Of a stretch of DNA of 64,000 nt, positions 40,032 to 55,301 are shown in pieces; position 1 is the first letter of the stretch, and every line of letters starts with the position of its first letter. The DNA is from Planctomycetota bacterium (lineage in GTDB: Bacteria; Planctomycetota; PLA2; JAEUHO01). The stretch lies in NCBI GenBank assembly GCA_965223505.1, contig CBDCWP010000010.1:142971-206970 (forward strand), written 5' to 3'. The position numbers were made by a program, and so were the translations under genes. The notes beneath the pieces are model-generated. The model made no database searches, was not told the origin of the DNA, and saw only the letters and a list, made by a program, of their open reading frames with translations.

Positions 40032-42191
40032 ATGAAACTCCGTCGCGCCCTTTGCCTGATTGTCCTGATCTCGGCCTCCCGAGGACTCTGTGTGCCGAGC
40101 GCAGACGGCGAGGAACGGATCGAGCGGCGCGCGCCGGGCACGATCGTGCTCCGCGGCGACCCCGACCGCGTCGCCGGACACCGCATCGTGCCGGCGTTCC
40201 CGCGGCTGCGGTTCCGGCGGCCGCTCTACTTCGGCTTCCTCCCGGACGGTTCGGGCCGGCTGTGCGTGTTGGAGCAGGACGGACGCGTCTTGCTGTTTCC
40301 CAACGCCGACAACGTCGGCCCGGAGCAGGTCCACGTCGCGCTCGACATCCGGCAGAAGGTCTATCGGAAGCACAACGAAGAGGGCCTGCTCGGCATCGCG
40401 TTCCACCCGCGGTTCGCCGAGAACCGAACGCTGTTCATCCACTACTCGGCCAACGGCCCGCGCCGCGGCGTCGTCTCGCGCTTCCGGATGAATCGCGCGC
40501 GAACGAAGATCGATCCCCGGAGCGAGCGCGTCGTCCTGGAACAGCGCCAACCGTGGGGCAATCACAACGGCGGGGGGCTGGAGTTCGGTCCGGACGGGTA
40601 CCTGTACATCACGTTCGGCGACGGCGGCGCCGGCGGCGACCCCCAGGGCAACGGCCAGAATCTCGGCACGTGGCTGGGCTCGATCTTGCGCATCGACGTG
40701 GATCGCAAGTCGCCGTACGCGGTTCCGCCCGACAACCCATTCGTCAAGCACCGCGGCGCGCGCCCGGAGATCTGGGCGTACGGTCTGCGCAACGTGTGGC
40801 GATTCTCGTTCGACCGGCTGACCGGCGATCTGTGGGCCGGCGACGTCGGTCAGAACGCGTGGGAAGAGATCGACCTGATCGTCAAGGGCGGCAACTACGG
40901 CTGGAAGATCCGTGAAGGCGCGCATCCGTTCCGCGGGCAGGGCCGAACGGAAGGCTTGATCGATCCGGTGATCGAGTTCGACACCTCCCAAGCGCGATCC
41001 ATCACCGGCGGCTACGTGTACCGCGGCAAGAAGCTCCCGGGCCTCGTCGGTACGTACGTCTACGCGGACTATGCGACCGGCAACGTGTGGGGCTTGAAGT
41101 GGGACGGCGAGACGGTGCGCGAGAATCGCTTGCTCGGCCGCGGCCGCAGCGTGTCGAGCTTCGGAGAGGACGCCGACGGCGAAGTCTACTTCACGTCTTT
41201 CGACGGTCGCATCTACACGTTCACACGTCCGCGTCATGCGAACGCGGGCGGGCGATTCCCGCGCAAACTCTCCGAGACGGGTCTGTTCACCGACACCGCC
41301 GCGCTGACGCCGCACGCCTCGCTGATTCCGTACGAGGTCAACGTGCCGCTCTGGTCCGACGGGGCGGCGAAGCAGCGCTACGTCATGCTGCCGGGCATGG
41401 AGCGGGTGCGTGTCGGTGCCGACGGTCGCTTCACGTTCCCCCAGGGCACGATCTTCGTGAAGACGTTCTTCGCCGGCACCTCGGCGAAGGCCCCGCGGCT
41501 CGAGACCCGACTCTTTGCCCGTCGTGACGAGGGTTGGCGGGGCTACACGTACGTCTGGAACGAGGCGCAGACCGACGCCGAGCTGATCGACGGCCGCGTC
41601 ACGGCGCCGACCTCCGCCCAGGCGCGTCGCGCGGGACTGGCCGACCGCTGGACGTTTCCGAGCCGTTCGGACTGCATGAGCTGCCACACGGAGGCAGGGG
41701 GCTCGGTGCTCGGTTTTCGCGCGGAGCAGCTTCACCGCACGAACGAGCACTTCGACGAGGCCACCGTCAGCCGGCTCGAGGTGCTGCAGCGCATCGGCGT
41801 CTTCGAGGAAGGCGCCGACCCACGCGCCGTGACGTCGTTTCCGCGGTGGGACGACGGCAAAGCACCCCTCGACGGCCGGGTCCGCGCGTACCTGGATACG
41901 AACTGCGCGAGCTGTCATCAGCCGGGCGCGCCCGGCAACGCTCGCATCGACCTGCGGTACGACACGCCGCTCGGCGAGTCGCGCATGCTCGAGGAGCCGC
42001 CGGGCGACGACGACCTGGGCGTGCCGAACGCGCGCATCGTCAAACCGGGCCGTCCGAATCAGTCGCTGCTGCTGCTTCGCATGTTACGCACCGACGAGAA
42101 GGGCATGCCGCACATCGCCCACGAGTCGGTCGACCGCAAGGCCGTCGACCTCGTCACGCGATGGATTCGATCGCTGCGTCCGCTGAAGTAG
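40032..42191 (+). CDS. PQQ-dependent sugar dehydrogenase (GSDH/sorbosone dehydrogenase family) fused to a C-terminal dihaem cytochrome c domain (two CxxCH)
   Basis: Signal peptide. HNGGGLEFGPDGYLYITFGDGG and the other GSDH propeller motifs. CMSCH and CASCH haem-binding motifs. Confidence 0.9.
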   Translation: MKLRRALCLIVLISASRGLCVPSADGEERIERRAPGTIVLRGDPDRVAGHRIVPAFPRLRFRRPLYFGFLPDGSGRLCVLEQDGRVLLFPNADNVGPEQVHVALDIRQKVYRKHNEEGLLGIAFHPRFAENRTLFIHYSANGPRRGVVSRFRMNRARTKIDPRSERVVLEQRQPWGNHNGGGLEFGPDGYLYITFGDGGAGGDPQGNGQNLGTWLGSILRIDVDRKSPYAVPPDNPFVKHRGARPEIWAYGLRNVWRFSFDRLTGDLWAGDVGQNAWEEIDLIVKGGNYGWKIREGAHPFRGQGRTEGLIDPVIEFDTSQARSITGGYVYRGKKLPGLVGTYVYADYATGNVWGLKWDGETVRENRLLGRGRSVSSFGEDADGEVYFTSFDGRIYTFTRPRHANAGGRFPRKLSETGLFTDTAALTPHASLIPYEVNVPLWSDGAAKQRYVMLPGMERVRVGADGRFTFPQGTIFVKTFFAGTSAKAPRLETRLFARRDEGWRGYTYVWNEAQTDAELIDGRVTAPTSAQARRAGLADRWTFPSRSDCMSCHTEAGGSVLGFRAEQLHRTNEHFDEATVSRLEVLQRIGVFEEGADPRAVTSFPRWDDGKAPLDGRVRAYLDTNCASCHQPGAPGNARIDLRYDTPLGESRMLEEPPGDDDLGVPNARIVKPGRPNQSLLLLRMLRTDEKGMPHIAHESVDRKAVDLVTRWIRSLRPLK

Positions 42192-42194
42192 CGC

Positions 42195-43178
42195 CTACAA
42201 GAACTTGGTCTTGAGCTTCTCGGCGATCTTCTGCGCTTCCTGGCCTGCCTTGGTGTTCTCGTACTTCTTCTTCGTCAGCGACTTGATGATGGCGTACTGC
42301 TTCTTGTAGTTCGACTCTTCCGCCATCTTCGCTTTGGCCTTCGCGAGCTTCTTGCTGGCATCCACCTCGAGCTTGAGCTCCTTGTCCTTCAGGATCTCCT
42401 TGGCGGCGGCCTGCGCCTGCTTGCCGTAGTCGTGCCCCTTGAACTCCTTGGCGACGCGCTCGTAGGCGAGGAACGCGTCGTACACGTTGCGCTCGCGCAG
42501 CGCCGCCGCCGCCTCCTCGAGCGAAGAGGTCGCGGTCCACTCCAACCAGGCCTTGATCTCGTTCGCGGCTTCCAGCTCGTCGCCTTCGACCTTTTCGCCC
42601 TCGATGGCCGCGTTCACCTTCTTGAGCGCGTCGGCGAACTTCTGCTTGCCGATGGCCTTCTCGACCTTCGAGAGCGACGCCGGGAACGCCGGAAGGAGCC
42701 GGATGCTCGCCAGGGCCTCCTCGATCATCTCGGTGGTGACGGACGCCGGGTGGTCCACGACGAGCACCTTGCCGCGCGCGTCGATCAGAACCGCCGAGGG
42801 GTAGCTGTTGCGGCCGTACGCCGCCATGGAGTCGGTTTTCTCGCTGATGATCGGGTGCTTCGCGTCGGTCTTCTCGATGAACGCCTCGATGCGCGATGCC
42901 GGTTCCTTCGAGATGGAGATGACCGTCAGGCCCTTGGGGCCGTACTTCTCGTGAAGCTCGTCCAGGTGACCCACCTGGTTCACACACGGGCCTCAGGTCG
43001 TTGCGAAGAGCTCGAGGAACACGACGCGCCCGCGCAGGTCCTCGAGGGTGACCGGGTCGGTGTTGAAGAACTCGTCGCCCTCGAAGGCGGCGGCGGGATC
43101 CCCGACCCCGGCGACGGCCGAGGTGCTGGACAGGAGGAGAACGCCGAGGACGGCGCCTGCAACGGCGATCTTGCTCAT
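42195..43178 (-). CDS. Secreted TlpA/ResA-like thioredoxin-fold protein with in-frame TGA at the catalytic Cys position (candidate selenoprotein, U-G-P-C motif) and a C-terminal Lys/Ala-rich helical extension
   Basis: Two same-frame ORFs (42993-43445 and 42195-42983) are separated only by TGA at 42993-42995. Signal peptide MSKIAVAGAVLGVLLLSSTSAVA. Context VVFLELFATT-TGA-GPCV aligns with WCxxC. Hairpin immediately downstream of the TGA. Confidence 0.7.
42962..42978 (-). promoter_or_regulatory. bSECIS-like hairpin (CCAGGUG-GGU-CACCUGG; 7-bp stem, GGU loop) starting 15 nt after the in-frame UGA
   Basis: Perfect inverted repeat read directly from the sequence. The position relative to the UGA fits bacterial SECIS geometry. 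Confidence 0.5.
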
Positions 43179-43231: not shown

Positions 43232-44332
43232 CTACGCGCTCGTCAGCACCACGGCGCCGGCTTGCCCGAGAAGGCCGCCGGTCAGGACCAAGACCCCGTT
43301 CGAGGCCCGTTGGGCGGCCAGCGCGACGACGATCGACTCGTGGGCTGCGGCGAGATACCCCAAGTGCTTCGACGGCGTCCAGGCCTCGGCTTCGAGCGTC
43401 GCAACGGCCGCGTCCGCCTCGGCGCGGGCCGCCGCGGTCGCGCACGGGGGCGTCACGACGAGGGCGATCCGCGCTCGGCGCGCGTCACGCAACGCGCCCT
43501 GAAGCGCCGCCGCCAGCGTCTGTCGTTCGGGCCCGTAGCCCACCGCCGGCCCCGTTGACGCGGCCGATCCGGCGATGGTCGCGAGCGGACGCGCGCCGCG
43601 TCGCTCCGCGTGCGCGCGCGTCTCGATCACCAACGCGCCCGCGCCGTCGCCGGGCTCCAGCGCGTCGAGCTCGAGCTGATCGATCTCGTGCAACGCGACG
43701 GGCGCGCTGCCGACCGACGCGCCGACGACGACGGCGAGGTCGAGCCGTCCGGTCGCAACGGACCGGGCTGCGAGCGAGAGCAGGTGTTGCGACGTCGCGG
43801 AGAACCCCGCCACGCTCGTGTTCGCGCCTTGCAGCTCGTACCAGGTAGCGAGAAACGAGTAGACGTTGTTCTTCAGGTTCTCGAGCAGGAAGAACGGCTT
43901 CACGCGGCGCGCGCACGCCTGGTTGAGGGTCTTTGCCTCGTACGTTCGCCCTTCCGGGTTCGCGGCCACGAACCCCGGCCGGAAGTCCAGGCACGCCCAC
44001 TCGGTTGCGTCGCCCTGTGCGAGATAGAGTCCCTTTCTCGGGCCCGCGATCTCGCCGCCGTCCAGCCCGGCTTGCAGCGCCGCCTCGCGCGTGGCGTCCA
44101 CGGCGAACCGGCCGCTGGCGCTCAGGAACTTGATCTGGCTCTCGAGGTCGCGCGGCACGTCGCAGTGGATCGACGTGTCCTCGATGCGCGCGCCGCGAAC
44201 GGGCGTTGCGCCGTAGAGATTGCGAACGGCGGACGCGCCGGATGTCAGTTGCGACGTCGTGGTATCCACGCCCCGCCCGAGCGCGGTGACGACACCGGCG
44301 CCGGTGATGACGACGTCGCACTTGTCGTTCAC
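43232..44332 (-). CDS. Ketosynthase-like protein lacking the active-site Cys (chain-length-factor-like)
   Basis: GTG start in GTGA overlap with the upstream dehydratase. Thiolase/KS fold, with VAGFSATS in place of the CSS nucleophile. Confidence 0.8.
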   Translation of the reverse strand: MNDKCDVVITGAGVVTALGRGVDTTTSQLTSGASAVRNLYGATPVRGARIEDTSIHCDVPRDLESQIKFLSASGRFAVDATREAALQAGLDGGEIAGPRKGLYLAQGDATEWACLDFRPGFVAANPEGRTYEAKTLNQACARRVKPFFLLENLKNNVYSFLATWYELQGANTSVAGFSATSQHLLSLAARSVATGRLDLAVVVGASVGSAPVALHEIDQLELDALEPGDGAGALVIETRAHAERRGARPLATIAGSAASTGPAVGYGPERQTLAAALQGALRDARRARIALVVTPPCATAAARAEADAAVATLEAEAWTPSKHLGYLAAAHESIVVALAAQRASNGVLVLTGGLLGQAGAVVLTSA

Positions 44333-44781
44333 GACGACTCCGGCGCGCCGCGAAGCATGTCGAACGACCGCCGGGCCGCCTCTCGCGAGGCGAGATCCTC
44401 GAGCGCGGTCACCCGTGCTTCGAACTCGATCACGGCGGCGCGTTCGCCCTCGACCGACGCCTCGGCCCGGTAGGCGCGGCGTGCTTCGTCGTCCGACGCC
44501 GTCCGCTCGATCGACAGGTCCACGCGGTCGCCCGGCGCGGCGAACCGGTAATAGCGGGCGGAGACGACGCGATCCAAGAGCACCCAACGCTCGAACGCCG
44601 AGGACGACGCCTCCATCCAGCCGGCGAGCTGTGCGAGCGCCTCGAGAATCAGCATGCCGGGCAGGATCGGCCGCTCGGGAAAGTGCCACTCGAGGTAGTC
44701 CTCGCTCATGGCCACGTTCTTCCAGCCGGTTGCGCGGTCGGCCTCGATGGACCGGATCCGATCGACGAGCAGGTACCTCAT
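44329..44781 (-). CDS. FabZ/FabA-like hot-dog beta-hydroxyacyl-ACP dehydratase
   Basis: Motifs LLVDRI and EWHFPERPILPGMLILEALAQ. ATGA overlap with upstream acpS. Confidence 0.8.
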   Translation of the reverse strand: MRYLLVDRIRSIEADRATGWKNVAMSEDYLEWHFPERPILPGMLILEALAQLAGWMEASSSAFERWVLLDRVVSARYYRFAAPGDRVDLSIERTASDDEARRAYRAEASVEGERAAVIEFEARVTALEDLASREAARRSFDMLRGAPESS

Positions 44782-45176
44782 GCGCCCGCCCTCTGGAGGA
44801 TCACCGATGCCATGGCGTGCGCGCCGGTGTGGGTCAACGAGACCGACGCTGCTCCGAGCGCCTGCGTGCGGGCGACGCGCAGCGGCCGTCCCGAGAGCCG
44901 AAGCGTCGGCGCGCGGCCTTCCCGCACGACTTCGATCTCCTTGAGCGCGCGGTCGATGCCGGTGGGCGTGATGCCGATGCCCAGCGCCTTGAGCGCGGCC
45001 TCCTTCGCCGCGAAACGGGCCGCGAAGTGCGGCAGCGGATCCGGGTGTCGCCGGCAATAGCTGCGCTCGTCGTCGGTGAACACGCGCGCCTCGAACGCTG
45101 CGTGCCGCGCCATCACATCGCGCAGATGCGCGACGTCGACGAGGTCGATGCCGTGGCGAACCGAGCCCTTCTTCAT
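44778..45176 (-). CDS. acpS: Holo-ACP synthase (AcpS-type 4'-phosphopantetheinyl transferase)
   Basis: GIDLVDV...AAKEAALKALG signature. ATGA overlap with fabG. Confidence 0.85.
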   Translation of the reverse strand: MKKGSVRHGIDLVDVAHLRDVMARHAAFEARVFTDDERSYCRRHPDPLPHFAARFAAKEAALKALGIGITPTGIDRALKEIEVVREGRAPTLRLSGRPLRVARTQALGAASVSLTHTGAHAMASVILQRAGA

Positions 45177-45928
45177 GCGACCGACATCCCTCCGTCGACC
45201 AGGAAACCCTGGCCCGTAATGTAGGCGGCGTCGTCCGAGCAGAGGAAGAGGACCAGGCCCGCCACGTCTTCCGGCGTGCCGAACCGTCCGGCCGGAATGC
45301 GTTCGAGGACCTGATCGCCGGCACGCCGCTTGACCACCGCCGTCATGTCCGTGTCGATGAAGCCGGGCAGAACCGCGTTGGCCTGGATATTGCGCCCCGC
45401 CATCTCCAGGGCGGTGGCGCGCGTGAACGCGAGCACGCCGCCTTTGGCCGCGGCGTAGTTGGCCTGCCCGACGCCGCCGCGCACCGAGCTGATCGAGGCG
45501 ATGTTGACGATGCGACCGGCGCGCGCGCGCATCATCGGCCGCAGCGCGGCGCGCGTGCAGAGATAGACCCCCGTGAGATTCACGTCGATGACGCGCTGCC
45601 AGTCCTCGGGTCGCATCGTGAGCAGCAACGTGTCCTTCACGATGCCGGCGTTGTTCACGAGCGCGTCGAGGCGACCGTGGTCATCGAGCACACGTTCGAA
45701 GAGCGCGCGTACGCCGTCTTCGTTGCCGACGTCGGCCCGGACGGCTTGGGCGCTGCCGCCGGCGGCCTCGATCTCCGCGACCAAGGACGCGGCGTCATCG
45801 GCGGACGACGCGTAGTTGGCGATCACGTGGGCGCCGTTCGCTGCGAGACGCCGGGCCACCGCCCGTCCGATGCCGCGGGAAGCGCCCGTCACGAGCGCGA
45901 CGCGGTCATGCAGGTTGTCGCGAATCAT
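45173..45928 (-). CDS. fabG: 3-oxoacyl-ACP reductase (FabG-type SDR)
   Basis: TGASRGIGRAVA cofactor motif, NNAG, and catalytic S...YAAAK. ATGA overlap with the upstream KS. Confidence 0.9.
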   Translation of the reverse strand: MIRDNLHDRVALVTGASRGIGRAVARRLAANGAHVIANYASSADDAASLVAEIEAAGGSAQAVRADVGNEDGVRALFERVLDDHGRLDALVNNAGIVKDTLLLTMRPEDWQRVIDVNLTGVYLCTRAALRPMMRARAGRIVNIASISSVRGGVGQANYAAAKGGVLAFTRATALEMAGRNIQANAVLPGFIDTDMTAVVKRRAGDQVLERIPAGRFGTPEDVAGLVLFLCSDDAAYITGQGFLVDGGMSVA

Positions 45929-47154
45929 GCGTCGTCTCCGAAAGCCCGCACCGCCAAGACGGCGTTCTGTCCGCCGAACGCGAAGGAGTTGTTCAGCGCG
46001 GCGGTGACCACCGCTTGCCGGCTCGCGTCCGGGACGAGGTCCAGATCGCATGCCGGGTCCGGTTGCGTCAAGTTGCGTGTCGGCGGCACCGCGCCGCGGC
46101 GGATGGCGAGGACGCAGAAGATGAACGCGACGCCGGCCGCGGCCGAGAGCAGATGGCCGATCGCGCCCTTGCCGGACGACACGGCCAACGCGGCGGCGTG
46201 ATCCCCGAACACCGTGTGGATCGCCCGGACCTCGGCGGGGTCGTTGCGCTTCGTCCCGGTCCCGTGGGCGTTGACGAACTGGACCTCGCTCGGCGCGAGT
46301 CCGCCGTCGCGCAGCGCGGCGTCCATGGCTTCCGCGGCGCCGCGGCCGTCCGGCGGCGGTGCGGTCGTGCGATAGGCGTCCAGCGAGGAGCCGTAGCCGG
46401 CCACCTCGGCGTAGATGCGCGCCCCACGGGCGCGGGCGTGTTCGAGCTCCTCGAGCACGACGCAGCCGGCGCCCTCGCCCATGACCAGCCCCGAGCGCTT
46501 GCGGTCGAACGGCTTGCAGGCCGCGGCCGGATCGTCCCCGACCGAAGCGGAGGCGCCCAGCAGCACGAAGAAGACGAGTCCCAGCGGGTTGATCATCGAG
46601 TCCGCGCCGCCGGCGATCATCCAGTCCGTCTCGCCCCGGCGAATGCTGCGAAACGCGGCGCCGAGCGCCTGGTTGGACGCGGAGCAGGCCGTGGTCACCG
46701 CGTGCACCGGACCGCCGAGACCCAATTCCCGGGCCAACAGTACGGCCGGCAGCTCCGCCGTGTTGCGGATCAGACTCTCCGGATGGACCGCCGCCGCATC
46801 GTCGACGCCGACGTCCTCGAGCCGGTGGACGCCGGGGCCGGAACCCAGGATCACGCCGGCCCGGTCGTGCGCCCCGCGTTCGATGCCGGCGTCGGCAGCC
46901 GCGTTCGTTCCGGCGGCGACGCCGAACAGCGTGCGCAGATCGCATGCCGCGGCGGCAGGCAGGGAGGTGCGCAGGCGCTCGACCACGGCGTCGTCGACCT
47001 CGCCGACCGCGCCCGTGGGGGGGCGCGTCGCACCGTGCCGCCGCGACGCCGTGACGCCCGCGTCTCCGCCCAGCATGCGCTCCCACACCGTGTCCACGTC
47101 GTCTCCGAACGGTGTGACCAGCCCCAGCCCTGTGATGACCACGCGCCGGCTCAT
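45925..47154 (-). CDS. Beta-ketoacyl-ACP synthase (KS, active-site Cys present)
   Basis: TTACSAS nucleophile, NAHGTGT and GHLLSAAG His motifs. ATGA overlap with the upstream dehydratase. Confidence 0.9.
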   Translation of the reverse strand: MSRRVVITGLGLVTPFGDDVDTVWERMLGGDAGVTASRRHGATRPPTGAVGEVDDAVVERLRTSLPAAAACDLRTLFGVAAGTNAAADAGIERGAHDRAGVILGSGPGVHRLEDVGVDDAAAVHPESLIRNTAELPAVLLARELGLGGPVHAVTTACSASNQALGAAFRSIRRGETDWMIAGGADSMINPLGLVFFVLLGASASVGDDPAAACKPFDRKRSGLVMGEGAGCVVLEELEHARARGARIYAEVAGYGSSLDAYRTTAPPPDGRGAAEAMDAALRDGGLAPSEVQFVNAHGTGTKRNDPAEVRAIHTVFGDHAAALAVSSGKGAIGHLLSAAAGVAFIFCVLAIRRGAVPPTRNLTQPDPACDLDLVPDASRQAVVTAALNNSFAFGGQNAVLAVRAFGDDA

Positions 47155-47594
47155 GCGCCGAGGACCCCGCCGTAGTACGCGAACCGCTTCCGCAGGACGT
47201 CGGGTTCGGGATGGGGGAGATGACCGTACAAGACCCGGCCGATGCGCGCGACCTCGACCCCGTCGACCTCAGCCCACGCGTGCCCGATCGACCCCTTGGG
47301 GTTCGTGCCCCGTAGCTCGCCGAAGAGCGTCAGCGTGCGCCCGGGACCGATCTCGGGGACCACCTCGACGTCCTCCAGCACCGAGAGAACGACCATGAGC
47401 GTGTAGTCGTGGCGGTGGATCGCGAGCCAACCGAGGAGCTGCACCATCGCCTCGATGATCAGCGACGACGGCACGAGCGCCCTGCGATCGAAGTGGCCGC
47501 GCAGGTACTCCTCGGAGATCGACAGTGACTTCACGCCCTCGATGCGGTTGCCGGGCTCGAAACGGGTGACGCGGTCGAAGAGAAGGAATCTCAC
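47151..47594 (-). CDS. FabZ-like hot-dog dehydratase
   Basis: GTG start (GGAG Shine-Dalgarno) in GTGA overlap with the upstream stop. Sequence FLLFDRVTRFEPG...LGWLAIH. Confidence 0.75.
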   Translation of the reverse strand: MRFLLFDRVTRFEPGNRIEGVKSLSISEEYLRGHFDRRALVPSSLIIEAMVQLLGWLAIHRHDYTLMVVLSVLEDVEVVPEIGPGRTLTLFGELRGTNPKGSIGHAWAEVDGVEVARIGRVLYGHLPHPEPDVLRKRFAYYGGVLGA

Positions 47595-48541
47595 GGCGAC
47601 TCCAACAGGATCGCAGCGCAACCGCCGTGGCTGGCCCGCGTGAGCACGAGCGCGCTGCCCGCGCCGGTCGCGTGGAAGTGGTCCACGCAGGCGACGAGAT
47701 CGACGAGCGGTTCCGCCGCGCCGCGGCTCGAGCGCACGGCGCCGCGTTGCTCGACCAGCGCATCGGCGAGGCCGTAGGCCTGGAGCTCGAACCACAGGTC
47801 CAGTGGCGCGCGGACGTGCCCGACGCTCTGCGGATCGCGTTCTCGAAGCACCGTGCGAATGGCGCGCGTGCAGGCGTCGCCGGAGCCGTACTCGAAGGTC
47901 GACGTTCCCGCGACGACGAAGGCCAGGGCAGCGACCCCTCGATCCTTCGCCGACGCCTCCGACTCGAGCACGCACGCCGCGCCCGCCTGCTCGCGTTCGG
48001 CCGGCTCACCCCGCAGCGCGTCCCGTAGCCGGGCGGGCGTCGTCAGGTCCTCGGACACGCCCGCGCACAGCGCGGCCTGTGCGGCGCCTTCGTCGATGGC
48101 GTGATGGGCTTCGATGAGCGCGCGCATGCCGGCATCGGACTCGCTGGCCAGGACGGCGTTGTCTCCGCGAATGCCGAGGTCGGTGGCGATCTGTCCCGCC
48201 GCGACGTTGTTCAGCATCGCGAGCGGCCACAACGGGTGAATCGAACGGTACGCGCCCGCGAAGAAGCGGGCTTCGTCGATCCGCCCGTCCACGCGCGACG
48301 CGTCGGCGGCCGCGACGAGATCGTCGGCGCCGTCGACCATGCCCATGCCGAAGAAGAGCCCCACGCGGCGCGGGTCCAGCTCCTGCAGACGTCCCCGGCG
48401 GTACGCCTCCGGCGCGACCGTCTCCAACATCCGACCGTGCGCGCCGAGAATGCGGAGCGCCGGATCGGCATCGACGTCCATCACGTCCGACGACGCCATG
48501 TCGCTTCGACACGCGGCCGTGATCGCGACGCGCCCGGCCAT
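47591..48541 (-). CDS. KS-fold protein without catalytic Cys (chain-length-factor / KS-beta-like)
   Basis: LASESDAG in place of the Cys nucleophile. Start overlaps the upstream KS stop by 1 nt (TGATG). Confidence 0.8.
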   Translation of the reverse strand: MAGRVAITAACRSDMASSDVMDVDADPALRILGAHGRMLETVAPEAYRRGRLQELDPRRVGLFFGMGMVDGADDLVAAADASRVDGRIDEARFFAGAYRSIHPLWPLAMLNNVAAGQIATDLGIRGDNAVLASESDAGMRALIEAHHAIDEGAAQAALCAGVSEDLTTPARLRDALRGEPAEREQAGAACVLESEASAKDRGVAALAFVVAGTSTFEYGSGDACTRAIRTVLRERDPQSVGHVRAPLDLWFELQAYGLADALVEQRGAVRSSRGAAEPLVDLVACVDHFHATGAGSALVLTRASHGGCAAILLESP

Positions 48542-49830
48542 CAAGCAGCCGGTCCCAGGCACAGACAGCCGTTCTGCCCGCCGAACCCGAACGAACTGGA
48601 GAGCACGACCGAGTGTTCCATCTCGCGCGCCTCGTTGGGCACGTAGTCGAGGTCGCAGCGCCGGTCGGGAAACTCGTAGTTGATCGTGGGGAGCACCACG
48701 CCGTCGCGCATGCCGCGAAGGCTCAGGATCGCTTCGATCGCGCCCGCGGCGCCGATCGTGTGCCCGAGCATGCTCTTGTTGCTGGAGACAGGCACCCGCG
48801 CGGCGCGCCCGCCGATCACGCGCTTGATCGCGAGCGTCTCGACGGGGTCGTTGGTCGGTGTCGAGGTGCCGTGGGCGTTCACGTAGTCGACGTCGTCGGG
48901 CGTGAGCCCGGCGTCGCGGATCGCGCGCCGCATGGCGAGCACGGCCCCGTCGCCGCGCGGATGCACGTCGGTGATGCGATAGGCGTCGGCCGAGTCTCCG
49001 TATCCGAGGATCTCGCCGAGCGCGTCCACCCCCCGCGCGCGTGCGTTCGCGAGCGTCTCCAGGATCAAGATGCCGGCGCCTTCGGCGATCACGAAGCCGT
49101 TGCGCTTTCGATCGAACGGTCGGGACGCGGCCTGCGGCGATGGATAGCGCCTGGTGAGCGCACCGAGAATGGCGAACCCGAGGTAGCCCGAGTAGGACAG
49201 CAACGGCTCGGCGCCACCGGTGACGACGGCGTCGGCGCGGCCCTCCCGTAGGAGCCGTGTCGCCTCGCCGATGGCCTGCGCACCCGCGGCGCACGCGCTC
49301 ACGATCGGCAGCGCCGCGCCGCGCGCGTCGACGTAGTTCGCCAACAGCGCCGGCGCCGCGTCGGGCTGACGGACGGTGAATTGGCGGCTGTCGTACTGCG
49401 CCTCCCCGGCGAGGCCGGCGGCGTCCAGCACGCCGTCGTCGTCGGTATGGCGAACGTAGCGGTCGATCTCGGCGATGCCGGGGGTCGAGCCGTGGCCGCC
49501 GAGCACGACGGCGACGCGGGTGCGGTCCTCGATCTCGTCGAGCTTCGCGGTGCGGCGCGCGTCGTCGGTGGCCGTGCGTGCGAGGCGTAGCTCGGAGCCG
49601 CCCCGCTCGTCGTCCGGGTGCGGCGGCGCGAGATCGTCGTCATCGATCTGGCCGGCGATGTCGCACGGCAGGCCCGTGGCGTCGAAGCGGCGCACGACGT
49701 CCACGCCCGAGCGGCCCGCGCGCATGGCCGCGAAGACGTCGTCCAGGTCGCGGCCGAGCGGTGTGACGAGCCCCATGCCGGTGACGACGACGCGCTGCCG
49801 CGGGTCGATGTCGTCACGGCCCGCGAGCAC
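48541..49830 (-). CDS. Beta-ketoacyl-ACP synthase II (FabF-like)
   Basis: VVVTGMG, SACAAG nucleophile, NAHGTSTP, KSMLGHTIGAAG. Confidence 0.9.
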   Translation of the reverse strand: MLAGRDDIDPRQRVVVTGMGLVTPLGRDLDDVFAAMRAGRSGVDVVRRFDATGLPCDIAGQIDDDDLAPPHPDDERGGSELRLARTATDDARRTAKLDEIEDRTRVAVVLGGHGSTPGIAEIDRYVRHTDDDGVLDAAGLAGEAQYDSRQFTVRQPDAAPALLANYVDARGAALPIVSACAAGAQAIGEATRLLREGRADAVVTGGAEPLLSYSGYLGFAILGALTRRYPSPQAASRPFDRKRNGFVIAEGAGILILETLANARARGVDALGEILGYGDSADAYRITDVHPRGDGAVLAMRRAIRDAGLTPDDVDYVNAHGTSTPTNDPVETLAIKRVIGGRAARVPVSSNKSMLGHTIGAAGAIEAILSLRGMRDGVVLPTINYEFPDRRCDLDYVPNEAREMEHSVVLSSSFGFGGQNGCLCLGPAA

Positions 49831-49834
49831 GGGG

Positions 49835-50407
49835 CTAGGCCCCCGCGAAGAGCTTCTGCTCGGACTCGACCTTCTGGATCCACTGTTGGATCAACACGTC
49901 TCCGTCGGGGTAGACGCAGTCCGCGCCGCATGCCCCGCACTTGACGCGGGCGCCGTCCTCGCTCTTCCACGTGTCCTGCGCGTTGCAGGCGGTGCACGCC
50001 TGTGGCAGGTGGTCCAGGATGTTCGCTACGCCGTCCGCGACGATCTTCGGTGTGACGAGCGCGGGGATCTCGTCGGCGTACAAGCCGGCTTCGAGCGCGT
50101 CGAGATCGCCCATGTACATGCGCAGCAGCTTCGCCGCCGGCTCCGTGATCTTGTTGTCCCTGTCGATGGCGACGCCGTCGCCCAGCTGCTCCTCGACGTG
50201 GTCCAGGATCAGCTGCGAGGCGAGCTGGATGCCGAACGCGTTCTCGAGCCGGAAGTTCACGTCGAGGAAGTCGATGGACGTGGCCTGGAGCGACTTGACG
50301 ACCGAGGCGTCCATCGCGATGTCGTCCTCGTTCAGGCGGAGGGTCGCGGCCAGGGCGCTGCGGACTTCGGCCTCGATGCGTTCGCGACTGACGAGCGGGT
50401 TCGACAT
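49835..50407 (-). CDS. Acyl carrier protein fused to a C-terminal Cys-rich (CxxC-x17-CxxCxxxC) zinc-ribbon-like domain
   Basis: ACP signature ATSIDFLDVNFRLENAFGI (phosphopantetheine Ser), then about 110 extra residues ending ...CTACNAQDTWKSEDGARVKCGACGADC.... Confidence 0.75.
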   Translation of the reverse strand: MSNPLVSRERIEAEVRSALAATLRLNEDDIAMDASVVKSLQATSIDFLDVNFRLENAFGIQLASQLILDHVEEQLGDGVAIDRDNKITEPAAKLLRMYMGDLDALEAGLYADEIPALVTPKIVADGVANILDHLPQACTACNAQDTWKSEDGARVKCGACGADCVYPDGDVLIQQWIQKVESEQKLFAGA

Positions 50408-50475
50408 CGATCGGGGTCTCCGGGGCGGCGGGTCGGTGTACCCGGCACTCGGGGCGTTTGCAAGGCGTGCGAAGG

Positions 50476-51234
50476 TCAGTCGGCGCTCCCGCGAAACAGC
50501 CGATTGGAGAGGCCCCGATCTACCACGAGCGTTTGTCCCACCACGCCCGCCGACCCGGCGCCGCACAGGAAACGGACCGCGGCGGCCACCTCCGCTTCGG
50601 GCACGAAGAACCGCTCGGGCAGCGACTCGAGCTCCGGCCAGACCCGCCGCAGCGTCTTGTAGGCGTCCGTCTTGACCAGGCCCGCGCAGACGGCGTTCGC
50701 GCGAATGCCCCGCGGACCCAGCTCTTCGGCCCACTGTCGCGTCATCGACTCCATGGCGGCCTTGATCGGTCCGAGGGGGTACTGGCGGTTCATGAATCGC
50801 GAGCCCAGACTCGAGATGAACACGATCGATCCCCCCTGGCGCTCCAGCAGGGGCAGCGCCTTCTGAACGCAATAGACGTTGCCCAGCAGATTCGTGTCGA
50901 CCAGCTGCCGCAGGTCACGCTCCAGCAACCGCGCCGTGTCCTTGAACGGTGCGCGCGCCGCGTTGAGCACGAGGATGTCGAGGCGGCCGAACGCCTCCTG
51001 CACGCCGGACAGGAGCGCGTCGACCTGTTCTTTCGACGCGATGTCCGCACCGACGAAGGTCGCCCGACGCCCGAGCGCGGCCACGGCCTCCACGGTCTCG
51101 TCGGCGGCGCGTCCGGGCGCGCGTCCATGGACCACGACGTCGGCGCCGTCCCCGGCGAGCCGTAACGCGATCGCGCGGCCGATGCCGCGGCTGCTGCCGG
51201 TGACCAGTGCGACCTGTCCGTCGAGGGTTCCCAT
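50476..51234 (-). CDS. SDR family oxidoreductase (second ketoreductase-like enzyme of the operon)
   Basis: VTGSSRGIGRAIA, NAA, and catalytic S...Y...K. Confidence 0.85.
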   Translation of the reverse strand: MGTLDGQVALVTGSSRGIGRAIALRLAGDGADVVVHGRAPGRAADETVEAVAALGRRATFVGADIASKEQVDALLSGVQEAFGRLDILVLNAARAPFKDTARLLERDLRQLVDTNLLGNVYCVQKALPLLERQGGSIVFISSLGSRFMNRQYPLGPIKAAMESMTRQWAEELGPRGIRANAVCAGLVKTDAYKTLRRVWPELESLPERFFVPEAEVAAAVRFLCGAGSAGVVGQTLVVDRGLSNRLFRGSAD

Positions 51235-51341: not shown

Positions 51342-52523
51342 ATGACGATTGCGATCGAGGACCGCGTGGCAGTCAAAGAGACGACCAGAACCGTGCGCAA
51401 CTTCCAGGCGTTGAGCTCGCTCTTCGATGCGATCGAGTCCGGCGAGACGCCGAAGCCCCGATTGGATCGATCTCGCCGGCGACGCCCGGCTCACGTCGCT
51501 GGACGACGAGCAGCTGCGCGGCGTCCTCGCGCGGATTCACGCGTGCACGTTGCGGGGGGTTCAAGGCCAACAACGTGAAGAAGCGCGGGAAGCAGGAGTT
51601 CCTGCGCTACTGGCAGTCGATCACCCGGAGCGGGTTCCACGACTTCGCGGAAGACTGCTGGATGAAGTGCTACGACTCGCCGCACGTCGAGAACTACGAC
51701 TACGTACAGGCGTACCTGGACCGCGGGCTCGACGCGCTCGACCCCTACATGGTGTATTCGTCCGTTCTCGGCACGTGGGAGTACTCCGTCGAGGACTTCG
51801 TCAACACGGAGCTCTGCCGCGACGTGCAGACCGTCGTGGAGCCGCTGGCAGGCAGCGCCGAGTTCTGCCACACGGGGCACTTCCGGTATCCGGACATGAA
51901 GCTTTTTCATGTTCGACCTCGACGAAGAGGCCAAGAAGCACGTCGAGGAGAAGTTCTGGCACCCGCAGACGCGGCGCGAGTACCTGATCGGCGACGCGCT
52001 TGCGGAGGAGACCTGGAAGCAGGTCAAGGCCTTCTCGCACGGGAAGTCGCTCAGCTACATCGGCAAGCAGAGCCACAACTTCTTCGACACGAAGGAGCTC
52101 GTGCAGCTGCTCGACTGGGGTACGCGGTACACCGACTACTTCATGCTCGAGGTGAGTGAACCCTATCTCGTCGAAGACGAGCCCACGCGCGACGATCTCA
52201 CTCGGCGCGAGATGAAGGCCGCGGGATTCCGCGTGGCGCTCGACGACGTCGACGACCTCGTCCCGAACCCGTTGACGAACCGGCTCGACTTCAGCTTGAT
52301 CGCGTGGAACAAGGCGGGCGACAAGCGCACGCTGTTCGACTATCTCGGTTGGATCGGGTGGCAGGCGCCGACGCTGACCGCGCTCGGTCGTTTCCTCGGT
52401 CTGGAGTGCATGTACTTCCACTCGGAGGACACCGAGTTCCTGCCCGTCACCGAGGGCACGGAGACGTCCGACTGCCGCGAGAACAACACGTTCCTGCTGT
52501 TCCGACGGCCCGCCGACGCGTAG
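51342..52523 (+). pseudogene. Hypothetical ~390-aa protein whose reading frame is broken three times by single-base insertions in C4, G6 and T5 homopolymer runs
   Basis: Four consecutive ORF pieces in frames 0, 1, 2, 2 read continuously if one base is removed at 51456-51459 (CCCC), 51554-51559 (GGGGGG) and 51913-51917 (TTTTT). High GC3 throughout. Confidence 0.5.
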
Positions 52524-52526
52524 GCG

Positions 52527-52946
52527 CTAGATGTGGTTGCGGCGTTTCTTGTTCGCTGACGGGCCCTGTTTCATCACGAAGCGGTGATCTTCGACCAGAC
52601 GCAACAGGTCGAACGCGCTCAGAATCCCCACGACCCGCTGCTCGTGCGTGACCACGACATGGTGAATCCCGTGATTGCGCATCACCCGCGCCGCCACCGA
52701 CGGATCCGCGTACTGCGGCACCGTGAACACCTTGGTGCTCATGAGCAGGCTCGCCGGCGTCGAATCCGAGGGAACCTCGAGCACGTCCGACTTCGACACG
52801 ATGCCGGCGGCGCATCCCTCGTCGTCCACCACGGGGACGCAGCTGATCCCTGCTTCGTCCATGGCGATGCGGATCAAGTCCACCGTCGTGGACCGTGAGA
52901 TCGTCTTCACGTCTTTGACCATCAGATCGTCGACCGTCGTGTGCAT
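52527..52946 (-). CDS. CBS-domain pair protein
   Basis: GAGGAG Shine-Dalgarno 5 nt upstream. Two CBS motifs (DLMVKDVKTI...; HHVVVTHEQRVVGILSAFDLL). Confidence 0.8.
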   Translation of the reverse strand: MHTTVDDLMVKDVKTISRSTTVDLIRIAMDEAGISCVPVVDDEGCAAGIVSKSDVLEVPSDSTPASLLMSTKVFTVPQYADPSVAARVMRNHGIHHVVVTHEQRVVGILSAFDLLRLVEDHRFVMKQGPSANKKRRNHI

Positions 52947-53168
52947 CGAAGCTCCTCGTGCGAGATTTTCCTCACAGGCGTGGGGTCCCGTTCTCAGCTG
53001 CGCAGCGGGTGCTCTCGACACAACCTCCTCCCGTAGGCGAAGTTGGCCCGTTTTCGGCCCGGAACGGGTGCTGAGGACGCTCCGAATACGCAAGAGCGGG
53101 ACCGATTCGGCGTCCGGTGCCCGCGGCACGCCCTTCGCGCAGTGGCGCACACTCCCGGAGGGCTTGAC

Positions 53169-55301
53169 ATGGCTACCCGCAAGACCGTGTTCGTCGCGAT
53201 CGTCGTCGGCATCGCGTGTGTCGTGGCGGTTCAGGTGTCGGCGCAGGAGGGGCTGCCGGAGCGCAGTCCCGGCACCGTACGCCTCGAAGGAGACCCGGAC
53301 GGTCTGCCGGAGTACACGATCGTCAAAGCGTTCCCGAATCTGCGGTTCGAGCGGCCGACGTGCATTGCGAGCCCGCGCGACGGCTCGGACTCGCTGTTCG
53401 TCGCGGAGCAGGACGGCCGGATCAAGGGCTTCGAGAACGATCGCGACACCAAGAAGACCTGGGTGGCGCTCGACATCCGGAAGAAGGTCTCGCGTCAACA
53501 CAACGAGGAGGGCCTGCTGGGTCTCGCCTTCGATCCGGCGTTCAAGAAGAACCGCGCCGTCTTCGCGTACTACAGCACGTCGGAGCCGCGGCGGACGGTG
53601 CTGATGCGCTACAAGGCGACGTCGAACCGCCGGTACTTCGATCGACGCAGCGAGTCGTTGGTGCTGCGTCAGCGGCAACCAACCGGCAGCCACAACGGTG
53701 GCTGCATGGCCTTCGGTCCCGACGGCATGTTGTACCTGTCCATCGGTGACGGCGGCGAGGCCGGCGATCCGCACGGCCATGGCCAGAACCTGCAGGACTG
53801 GCTCGGCACGATCTTGCGCATCGACGTGAGCGGCGCACAGCGCTTCGCGGTGCCGCCCGACAATCCCTTTGCCAACACCCAGCACGTTCGGCCGGAGATC
53901 TGGGCGTACGGCTTCGCGAACGTCCGGGGCCTCGGATTCGACAGCGTCACCGGCGACCTGTGGGCCAGCGACGCGGGCGCCGGCAAGTTCGAGGAGATCA
54001 ACCACGTCCGGGCGGGTTCGAACTACGGCTGGCCGCTTCGCGAGGGCGCGGACGTTCACAGCAAGGGGAACGCGTTGACGCCCCTGCGGGGGCCCGTTGC
54101 GGTGTTCCCGCGCGGCACCGCGCGGCGACTGGTGGGCGGCATCGTCTATCGCGGCCGGCGTCTGCCGCAGCTCGTCGGCGCGTATCTCTGCGCCGACTAC
54201 GAGACCGGCACGATGTGGGCGCTGCGCTTCGACGGGACGCGCGTCAAGGAACGACGTCGGCTGGGCCGCGCGCCCGGCATCACGCACTTCGGAACGGACG
54301 CAGCGGGGGAGGTGCTCTGCACGGCCGCTGACGGCTACGTCTACACGCTCGCGCCGTGGAGCGGGGACAAGTCCAAGGCCGTCTTCCCGCAACGTCTGTC
54401 CGAGACGGGTCTCTTCAGCGACATCGCGTCGGTGACGCCGATCCCGGCGTTGATCCCGTACGACGTGAGCACGCCGCTCTGGTCGGACGGCGCCGGCAAG
54501 TCGCGGTTCGTCATGCTGCCCGATCTCGAGAAAGTCAAGATCGCCAAGGACGGCACGTACGACTTCCCGGTGGGCACGATCTTCGTCAAGCACTTCTTCC
54601 AGGGTGCGACGATCGAATCGGCGTTTCGCCGCCTGGAGACGCGGCTGTACACGCGCGGCGCGGAGGGATGGGCCGGCTACACGTACGTGTGGTCGGACGA
54701 CCGGTCGGACGCGTTCCTCATCGACGGTCGTGTGGAGAAGACGTTTCAAAGCGACGGAAAGGTGTCGAAGTGGACGTTCCCGAGTCGCGGCGACTGCTCC
54801 AGCTGCCACACTGCCGTCGCCAACGAGATCCTCGGCTTCCGGCGCGAGCAGCTCGACATCTCGATGAAGTACGGCGACCTGGAGATGAACCAGCTCGACG
54901 CGCTGGAGGCGATGGGAGTGTTCGAGGGCAAGAACAAGCGCAAGCACACCTGGCCGGCGTGGCCGGCGGAGGGCGAGGACCTCGACAGGCAGGTGCGGGC
55001 CTACCTCGACGCCAATTGCGCGATGTGCCACCAGCCGGACGGCCCGGGGAACGCCAACATCGACCTGCGCTACGACACGCCGTTGAAGAAGACGAACGTG
55101 CTTGATCGCAAGCCGGGCATGTGGAACCTCGGGGTCTTCGACGCGCGGCTCATCGCGCCGGGCGATCCGGAGCGGTCGATCCTGTACCTACGCATGAAGC
55201 GCACCGACCTGAAGGGCATGCCGACGATCGCGCACAACATCCCGGACGAGAACGCGCTCGCGCGCATCGAGAAGTGGATCCGGGCGATGCCGAAGAAGTA
55301 G
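53169..55301 (+). CDS. Paralogue of the PQQ-dependent sugar dehydrogenase / dihaem cytochrome c fusion protein
   Basis: Signal peptide (MATRKTVFVAIVVGIACVVAVQVSA). Same architecture and collinear similarity to 40032-42191, including CSSCH and CAMCH. Confidence 0.9.
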   Translation: MATRKTVFVAIVVGIACVVAVQVSAQEGLPERSPGTVRLEGDPDGLPEYTIVKAFPNLRFERPTCIASPRDGSDSLFVAEQDGRIKGFENDRDTKKTWVALDIRKKVSRQHNEEGLLGLAFDPAFKKNRAVFAYYSTSEPRRTVLMRYKATSNRRYFDRRSESLVLRQRQPTGSHNGGCMAFGPDGMLYLSIGDGGEAGDPHGHGQNLQDWLGTILRIDVSGAQRFAVPPDNPFANTQHVRPEIWAYGFANVRGLGFDSVTGDLWASDAGAGKFEEINHVRAGSNYGWPLREGADVHSKGNALTPLRGPVAVFPRGTARRLVGGIVYRGRRLPQLVGAYLCADYETGTMWALRFDGTRVKERRRLGRAPGITHFGTDAAGEVLCTAADGYVYTLAPWSGDKSKAVFPQRLSETGLFSDIASVTPIPALIPYDVSTPLWSDGAGKSRFVMLPDLEKVKIAKDGTYDFPVGTIFVKHFFQGATIESAFRRLETRLYTRGAEGWAGYTYVWSDDRSDAFLIDGRVEKTFQSDGKVSKWTFPSRGDCSSCHTAVANEILGFRREQLDISMKYGDLEMNQLDALEAMGVFEGKNKRKHTWPAWPAEGEDLDRQVRAYLDANCAMCHQPDGPGNANIDLRYDTPLKKTNVLDRKPGMWNLGVFDARLIAPGDPERSILYLRMKRTDLKGMPTIAHNIPDENALARIEKWIRAMPKK

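Follow-up and report, generated by a model that had tools for sequence, protein, structure and literature searches.

The DNA analysed here, a stretch of 64,000 nucleotides of contig CBDCWP010000010.1 from a Planctomycetota bacterium (hereafter the window), carries on its minus strand a tightly packed operon whose second gene encodes a long carrier protein of the acyl carrier protein (ACP) type, which we refer to as ACPx (Table 1). ACPs are among the most uniform of small proteins, and the specificity of their pathways is normally ascribed to subtle surface changes on a four-helix bundle of about 80 residues. The ACPx family roughly doubles the ACP: the fold is apparently split by an insertion, a ribbon with four Cys (Cys4) is added, and the carrier comes with two pairs of a ketosynthase and a chain-length factor and, usually, with its own phosphopantetheinyl transferase. 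As judged from its sequence, ACPx represents a subfamily of ACPs, so far undescribed, that has an accessory lobe built in and would mark an uncharacterised, widely distributed lipid pathway. Full-text literature searches retrieved no ACP with an integrated zinc ribbon and no description of such an operon.

The open reading frame (ORF) of ACPx has the features of a real gene. Its GC content at the three codon positions is 0.66, 0.38 and 0.94, a pattern typical of genuine genes at 68% GC, the value of the window, and the long ORFs opposite it are shadows of the kind usual at high GC. The initial annotation had read this ORF as an 80-residue ACP with a Cys-rich tail of some 110 residues, had considered the combination unusual and had assigned it to the adjoining operon. 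The two strings on which that reading was based (ATSIDFLD...ENAFGI and CTACNAQDTW...KCGACGADC) are present in the translation, the frame runs without internal stop or frameshift and is colinear with full-length homologues, and both the unusual character of an ACP combined with a Cys4 element and the membership in the operon were borne out. The division of the protein into ACP and tail fared less well, as detailed below.

The carrier identity of ACPx resides in its N-terminal part. Residues 14-70 match the Pfam PP-binding family (PF00550) with 21.8 bits, above the gathering score of 20.8, and relatives of ACPx score 34-39 bits with this family. The predicted phosphopantetheine site, Ser44, lies in homologues in the context (T/L/D/E)-S-(I/L)-D-F-L-D, Thr replacing in ACPx the usual Asp before the Ser, and helix II begins at this residue in the AlphaFold2 model. 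The best solved relative in sequence was RPA2022 (41.7 bits, E 9e-10), although its lead over ordinary ACPs was small (41.7 versus 36.1 bits, 5-6 bits). Comparison of the full model with the PDB, using Foldseek, retrieved only ACPs (among them AntF, AcpP, anammox amxACP and RPA2022), aligned to the first 50-66 residues, and the best superpositions on helices I-III gave root-mean-square deviations of 1.0-1.7 Å over 50-60 residues. One of these ACP alignments, with the highest target-normalised TM-score (0.75), spans 124 columns, which implies that the last ACP helix aligns far downstream in ACPx. By these sequence criteria, ACPx is an ACP-type carrier with an invariant predicted attachment Ser. 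However, its first ~80 residues do not constitute the complete canonical ACP initially proposed, since ACP profiles and solved ACPs align only as far as about residue 62-72, that is, to helices I-III. Known ACPs are compact four-helix bundles of ~70-100 residues, whereas ACPx has 190 residues and a presumed fourth helix that is not contiguous with the other three.

We next considered how the remaining residues relate to this core. The AlphaFold2 model, built on an alignment of 116 sequences, presents full-length ACPx as one compact unit, with a predicted local distance difference test score (pLDDT) of 91.7 and a predicted template modelling score (pTM) of 0.86. Its helices occupy residues 8-23, 44-58, 67-75, 89-99, 111-117, 120-131 and 169-184, with short strands between 137 and 163. 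The segment that separates helix III from the presumed helix IV contains a conserved G-(D/E)-G-x-A-I-D turn and the helices 89-99 and 111-117, and it is also found in ACPx relatives of 130-160 residues that have no ribbon. An exploratory mean-field covariation analysis of 214 family members (effective number ~119) coupled helix I with helix 120-131 (I11-A128, R8-A128, R8-D125, S7-L131), the last helix with loop 2, helix III and helix 89-99 (L62-I177, L75-I177, L94-I177), and the ribbon with both the start of helix I and helix III; couplings inside the ribbon include V155-Y166, C138-C160 and C141-C160. When residues 100-190 were modelled alone, confidence fell below that of the full-length model (pLDDT 81.3, pTM 0.58), the first 20 residues reaching pLDDT 65-71 and the ribbon core 83-92. 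Taken together, helices I-III and helix 120-131 would form the ACP bundle, into which residues 76-119 would be inserted, and the ribbon (136-166), the terminal helix and the insertion would make up a second lobe on the helix II/III side. Since the full-length model is confident, the fragment less so, and covariation links the added parts to the ACP helices, the ACP core and its additions appear to fold as one integrated body. A carrier-type ACP bearing a C-terminal zinc-ribbon-like Cys4 element stands; the picture of a free-standing 80-residue ACP with a 110-residue tail was dropped, as an insertion appears to divide the ACP fold and the additions join it in a single compact body.

The ribbon of ACPx has the pattern C138-x2-C141-x15-C157-x2-C160, and short strands flank both knuckles in two AlphaFold2 models. 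A further Cys, C164, follows after three residues (C160-x3-C164). The spacing of the knuckles had first been given as CxxC-x17, but the spacer is x15; likewise, W147 and K156 are separated by eight residues and not by nine. The fifth Cys of that first pattern is not a family feature either, being Ala in 108 of the 116 homologues. Apart from ACPx (codon 49916-49918, four residues past the second knuckle), Cys at this position occurs among these homologues only in the 83%-identical protein P0002. The other four Cys are kept in 90 of the 116 close homologues, and they are nearly invariant (≥90%) in a 23-sequence alignment, most members of which are 23-42% identical to its reference. They are found in every sampled clade of genome loci except Nitrospinota/Tectomicrobia; there the first knuckle has become S-P-A, with a two-residue deletion, and the second C-x-x-T, while the operon is unchanged. 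The ACP encoded by an orthologous Photobacterium cluster has no ribbon at all, and the shorter ACPx relatives (130-160 residues) extend through the ACP part, the insertion and helix IV and stop short of it. At one Planctomycetota locus (L015, 3229-3801) the homologue carries a two-residue insertion in the second knuckle, CGAEGC, giving CxxxxC for CxxC. We had also considered the Cys4 element as an ornament specific to Planctomycetota; wider sampling showed it to be ancestral and lost once in the Nitrospinota/Tectomicrobia lineage.

Known families offered little guide to this element. The scans of Pfam and NCBIfam found no family that covers the extension of ACPx; a profile search of this part, suggested by the initial annotation, gave only weak, sub-threshold zinc-ribbon matches. 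In Pfam, Anti-TRAP, Zn_Ribbon_YjdM, Lar_restr_allev, S27e and RRN7 matched ACPx at E 0.02-0.7, far below their cut-offs, and relatives gave weak rubredoxin-like matches (RUBY_RBDX, E 0.001-0.09), also below threshold. Foldseek with residues 100-190 alone found only non-significant zinc-ribbon neighbours (eL43, the RNF216 IBR domain and RPC10; E at least 0.09, probability at most 0.44). As in zinc ribbons such as eL43, TFIIB/TFIIS/RPC10 and the knuckles of rubredoxin, two CxxC(G) knuckles 15 residues apart sit on short beta-strands in the model; unlike them, the ACPx ribbon is embedded in an ACP and not in a nucleic-acid-binding or ribosomal protein, and the matches are non-significant. ACPx therefore has the signature of a zinc ribbon, and by sequence lies outside every described ribbon family. 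The Cys4 site most likely holds a structural metal ion, probably zinc; Zn and Fe are indistinguishable from the sequence. Judging from its distribution, the ribbon is ancestral and widespread yet dispensable, a pattern that suits a structural staple far more than a sensor.

The ACPx architecture proved to be widespread. When 5.8 billion protein clusters were searched, 97-100% of the query was covered by more than 120 clusters with proteins of 185-190 residues; where these clusters are labelled at all, it is only as 'acyl carrier protein' or 'phosphopantetheine-binding protein'. Homologues in the first-ranked cluster are 49-83% identical over the full length and those from Nitrospinota/Tectomicrobia ~40%, both with the same 185-190-residue architecture. 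With one genome scanned for each GTDB species, ACPx was found in 163 species; its nearest relatives there are from Planctomycetota metagenome-assembled genomes (≤66% identity), which makes this phylum the probable source of the window. The 80 loci listed from these species, almost all from metagenome-assembled genomes, belong to Planctomycetota, Syntrophobacteraceae and other Desulfobacterota, Nitrospirota/Thermodesulfovibrionia, Binatia, NC10/Methylomirabilota, Acidobacteriota, Chloroflexota, Nitrospinota, Tectomicrobia and Gammaproteobacteria. The stretch from the ACP motif to the Cys is about as conserved as the ACP part, with identities to the ACPx of the window of 0.60 versus 0.66 in close and 0.39 versus 0.42 in distant relatives. 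A profile made from the 23-sequence alignment matched 365 proteins, including 189-residue 'acyl carrier proteins' of cultured Pseudomonas (P. shirazica, P. mandelii, P. fildesensis and others), Atopomonas, Tahibacter and Montanilutibacter. The Pseudomonas protein aligns with ACPx from end to end, both knuckles included (27% identity, E 9e-21).

The extension was also searched for on its own. A profile of residues 100-190 matched 63 of 1.84 billion representative proteins, and the matches listed are mostly proteins of ~175-240 residues with the match at ~100-185, or short fragments. Every full-length match whose sequence was read has the ACP N-terminal part. Among the listed matches no stand-alone or differently fused extension was found, and no homologue has the ACP and the Cys-rich part as two genes, an arrangement that would have spoken against the proposed fusion; of the short matches that were examined, some begin at the edge of a contig and the others come from a chimeric contig. 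What remains is one frameshifted junk ORF (P0150) and a few spurious long or repetitive proteins (for example, P0168). On the metagenome contig L093 (1-529) the N-terminus of an SDR runs, in another frame, into the C-terminal half of ACPx, by chimeric assembly or a deletion of ~1 kb, and this junction creates the false stand-alone extension protein P0126.

The operon around ACPx (Table 1) is conserved as a unit. The order SDR-ACPx-KS-CLF-DH-KS-KR-AcpS-DH-CLF, where KS are ketosynthases, CLF ketosynthase-like partners (chain-length factors), DH dehydratases, KR a FabG-type reductase and AcpS the phosphopantetheinyl transferase, is near-invariant, being kept in nearly all of 86 related loci from about ten phyla, with the SDR directly upstream of ACPx in 81 of the 86. 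The AcpS gene is missing from an otherwise kept operon at four loci, three gammaproteobacterial and one from Desulfobacteraceae (L076, L077, L080 and L084). Of the 59 loci that extend to the end of the operon, 43 (38/44 outside Planctomycetota and 5/15 within) also have a gene for an LpxL-family acyltransferase; this gene follows the operon in most other phyla and is divergent and upstream in some Planctomycetota. The best NCBIfam match of its product is 'lipid A biosynthesis lauroyl acyltransferase' (PRK06553), below cut-off.

Table 1. Features of the ACPx gene and its operon (positions in the window; residue numbers refer to ACPx)
Feature	Position	Strand	Remarks
ACPx ORF	49835..50407	-	190 aa + TAG, ATG start; GC at third codon position (GC3) 0.94; full-length homologues
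GGAG, ribosome-binding-site-like	50418..50421	-	10-13 nt 5' of the ACPx ATG; read from sequence
ACP helices I-III, residues 8-75	50183..50386	-	Sole part matching ACP profiles and solved ACP structures
Ser44 codon, predicted phosphopantetheine site	50276..50278	-	T-S-I-D-F-L-D at helix II start; invariant, 116/116
Insertion, residues 76-119 (44 residues)	50051..50182	-	Between ACP helix III and presumed helix IV; AlphaFold2 secondary structure
Helix 120-131, probable equivalent of ACP helix IV	50015..50050	-	Covariation with helix I; one 124-column Foldseek alignment
Cys4 zinc-ribbon-like element, residues 136-166	49910..50002	-	Two CxxC(G) knuckles; short strands in AlphaFold2 model; weak ribbon matches
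Ribbon Cys codons	C138 49994-49996; C141 49985-49987; C157 49937-49939; C160 49928-49930	-	
C-terminal helix 169-184	49856..49903	-	Cap is invariant G169-D170; contains invariant W176; covariation
SDR	50476..51234	-	Directly upstream of ACPx
KS1, FabF-like ketosynthase	48541..49830	-	Cys-His-His triad; start 4 nt past ACPx stop
CLF1, ketosynthase-like partner	47591..48553	-	Catalytic Cys and His residues absent; start codon approximate
DH1, FabZ/FabA-like dehydratase	47151..47597	-	Start codon approximate
KS2, second FabF-like ketosynthase	45925..47154	-	Cys-His-His triad
KR	45173..45928	-	FabG model TIGR01830, 308 vs cut-off 298 bits
AcpS-type phosphopantetheinyl transferase	44778..45176	-	Operon-encoded
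DH2, second FabZ-like dehydratase	44329..44790	-	Homologues in related loci with ApeI-like Pfam matches
CLF2, second ketosynthase-like protein	43232..44326	-	Catalytic triad absent; last operon gene in window

Other cluster types carry this kind of carrier as well. Wherever the contig was long enough for the type of operon to be seen, ACPx adjoins genes for KS and KS-like proteins. The cultured gammaproteobacteria Pseudomonas shirazica (L094, 10001-20570; long ACP) and Photobacterium sp. (L095, 10001-20459; short ACP) have the same kind of cluster, consisting of ACP, KS, a KS-like or unannotated gene, KS, a second KS-like or unannotated gene, a 956-residue class III aminotransferase and two SDRs, of which literature searches returned no description. 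In P. shirazica a DUF1302 gene comes next; some 9 kb upstream, on the far side of a set of methylamine-dehydrogenase-type genes, are MMPL and BNR/YCF48-like genes. A distant ACPx relative (P0151; L087, 2689-4792) stands in the order KS, KS, ACPx, SDR, succeeded by an LpxA-type acyltransferase (Hexapep and Acetyltransf_11) and a QueG-like gene.

Compared with canonical type II ACPs (AcpP and the AntF-like ACPs of polyketide synthases), helix I, the long loop, helix II with its N-terminal Ser and helix III of ACPx superpose, and a ketosynthase gene adjoins ACPx. The canonical proteins, however, have ~77-90 residues and Asp before the Ser, where ACPx has Thr; in ACPx helix IV is apparently displaced by the 44-residue insertion and the Cys4 ribbon and an extra helix are appended, and no solved ACP aligns contiguously beyond ~residue 70. 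AcpXL and AcpM are extended ACPs that serve very long chains. The AcpXL-type proteins (RPA2022; PDB 2kw2 and 3lmo) have the SLDFLD...F...FGI motif in common with ACPx, although they have ~92-101 residues and neither insertion nor Cys ribbon. The rhizobial acpXL-fabZXL-fabF1XL-fabF2XL-lpxXL cluster places C26-C30 acyl chains on lipid A (PMC5613085). By gene class it resembles most ACPx loci in combining a dedicated ACP with a dehydratase, two ketosynthase-family genes and an LpxL-family acyltransferase; the ACPx operon differs in adding its own KR, an enoyl-reductase-like SDR, AcpS, a second DH and the Cys-less CLFs, and the window has no acyltransferase gene.

A second comparison concerns the aryl-polyene and other highly reducing type II polyketide synthases, which also have KS paired with Cys-less CLF, FabZ-like dehydratases, a FabG-like KR and a transferase of the Lip_A_acyltrans family; in the aryl-polyene type the dehydratases are ApeI and ApeP, the reductase ApeQ and the acyltransferase ApeD. 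Homologues of DH2 match the ApeI-like Pfam family. The enoyl-reductase-like SDR of the ACPx loci, which suggests a reduced chain, sets them apart. Aryl-polyene ACPs are of ordinary size, and their clusters typically carry an aryl-starter AMP-ligase, a thioesterase and LolA/MMPL export genes. In the conserved operon, both in the window and in the loci with gene tables, there is no gene for an aryl-starter ligase, thioesterase, methyltransferase or LolA/MMPL export. The DUF35 zinc-ribbon/OB scaffold offers a parallel, since in thiolase/HMG-CoA synthase/DUF35 complexes this small Cys4 ribbon protein is reported to dock onto condensing enzymes of the thiolase superfamily (PMC12960953). The likeness is in concept only, an analogy and not a relationship: DUF35 is not listed in the Pfam scan of ACPx at E up to 10, and ACPx has no OB fold.

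Taken together, the gene content points to a self-contained type II fatty-acid or polyketide-like lipid operon, for which the following scheme can be proposed. The operon AcpS would load Ser44 with phosphopantetheine, the chain would be built on the ACPx arm by the KS1-CLF1 and KS2-CLF2 pairs, and the FabG-type reductase, the two FabZ-type dehydratases and the FabL-like SDR would process it; in most related genomes, the LpxL-family acyltransferase may then pass the acyl group to a membrane lipid. The Cys4 metal would staple the small ribbon in shape, and the added lobe would pack on the helix II/III side of the ACP, the face used by ordinary partners. The remodelled surface would be recognisable only to the cognate enzymes, above all the KS-CLF pairs, and would keep the pathway apart from housekeeping fatty-acid synthesis. 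We favour this role for the lobe because the operon duplicates universal functions (AcpS, KR, DH and enoyl reductase) and because the lobe appears to pack on the partner face. In our judgement, there is an even chance that this proposal is correct, with ACPx as a dedicated carrier in which the lobe changes the face that binds partners and thereby insulates a type II lipid pathway of its own. The proposal takes up the idea of partner recognition already contained in the initial annotation, which is a plausible reading and the favoured one for the extra lobe. A more elaborate version seems doubtful: ACPx would be a composite class of carrier whose metal-stapled lobe latches the KS-CLF heterodimers, holding the carrier or handing the chain from pair 1 to pair 2, and would thereby help define an uncharacterised, widespread envelope lipid, perhaps a long chain linked to lipid A, of Planctomycetota, Nitrospirota, Nitrospinota, NC10, Desulfobacterota and some Gammaproteobacteria.

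Several observations weigh against the insulating role and the scheme built around it. The NCBIfam equivalog and subfamily models for ACP match residues 8-72 of ACPx, all below their curated cut-offs, and the best NCBIfam match of the SDR, the enoyl-ACP reductase FabL, is likewise below cut-off (E 1e-54). A tblastn search found no LpxL-type gene in the whole window, and the acceptor lipid is uncertain in this case, as only 5 of the 15 Planctomycetota loci have one. The loss of the ribbon in some lineages means that the lobe can do its work, whatever this is, without it, and the covariation analysis is, as said, exploratory. We infer the binding of metal, the packing of the lobe and its position relative to Ser44, its part in docking or insulation, and the nature of the product. 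Finally, these data are about equally compatible with a different role of the lobe.

In that alternative the lobe enlarges the hydrophobic interior of the carrier for a much longer or bulkier acyl chain than a 77-residue ACP can sequester, and the ribbon is a mere clamp on the lobe; we regard this as possible, with limited confidence. In its favour, the solved protein closest in sequence is RPA2022, which is of AcpXL type and has the SLDFLD-x-x-F motif in common; LpxL-type genes follow the operon in 43/59 loci, parallel to the acpXL cluster (PMC5613085), and the distant relative has an LpxA-type gene beside it. Two CLF-type proteins suggest a controlled, possibly long, chain length, and covariation sets the last helix and helix 89-99 beside helix III and loop 2, where the acyl chain enters in ACPs. 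However, the same type of ACP occurs in clusters that probably have different products, such as the aminotransferase cluster of Pseudomonas and Photobacterium, AcpXL handles C28 chains with only ~95-100 residues, and the preference for RPA2022 is as small as stated above (41.7 versus 36.1 bits). Chain shielding and insulation are not mutually exclusive.

The ribbon might instead be a redox or metal sensor, or an electron carrier, its Cys4 site binding Fe as in rubredoxin or forming reversible disulfides that switch the carrier or the pathway. Both knuckles have the form CxxCG, common to rubredoxins and zinc ribbons, the weak RUBY_RBDX matches in relatives point the same way, and an AhpC/TSA-like gene follows the operon in the window. 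We consider this improbable, and with it the metal-dependent regulation suggested by the initial annotation, since three of the four Cys are replaced across a clade with an unchanged operon and the Photobacterium orthologue has no ribbon; in addition, the operon has no conserved redox partner, and the rubredoxin and zinc-finger matches are all far below threshold. Lastly, the unusual length of ACPx, and the existence of some short database entries that hold only the C-terminal part, could be explained if an error of sequencing, assembly or gene calling had joined a normal ACP gene to a small zinc-ribbon gene. We rejected this, and its chances of being right are negligible: the frame is continuous with a GC3 of 0.94, a colinear protein of 185-190 residues exists in more than 120 clusters and in 163 species, the region between ACP motif and ribbon is about as conserved as the ACP part, AlphaFold2 gives one compact body, and the short entries examined were contig-edge fragments or from a chimeric contig.

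Returning to insulation of a private pathway as the favoured role, the operon product is probably an envelope lipid not yet assigned to genes, because the operon is conserved in about ten, mostly uncultured, phyla, often with an acyltransferase of LpxL or LpxA type. Should the lobe indeed serve as an insulator or latch, it would offer a novel route, open to engineering, to type II synthases that are orthogonal to primary metabolism, and we expect that such a protein would surprise ACP specialists. Cultured Pseudomonas species such as P. shirazica and P. mandelii carry relatives in which these ideas can be tested directly.

The surroundings of the operon in the window contain further genes. Right after its last gene lies a gene for the AhpC/TSA-like protein (42195-42983, minus strand), which has a long C-terminal tail rich in Lys, Glu and Ala and stands outside the conserved operon of other loci. 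The operon is flanked by two paralogues of ~720-750 residues (40032-42191 and 53043-55301, both on the plus strand). In both, a glucose/sorbosone dehydrogenase (GSDH) domain is N-terminal and CxxCH haem-c motifs are C-terminal; only the first copy also matches cytochrome c in Pfam. Upstream of the operon are a divergent gene for a protein of 204 residues that has no Pfam match (51909-52523, plus strand) and a gene for a CBS-pair protein (52527-52991, minus strand).

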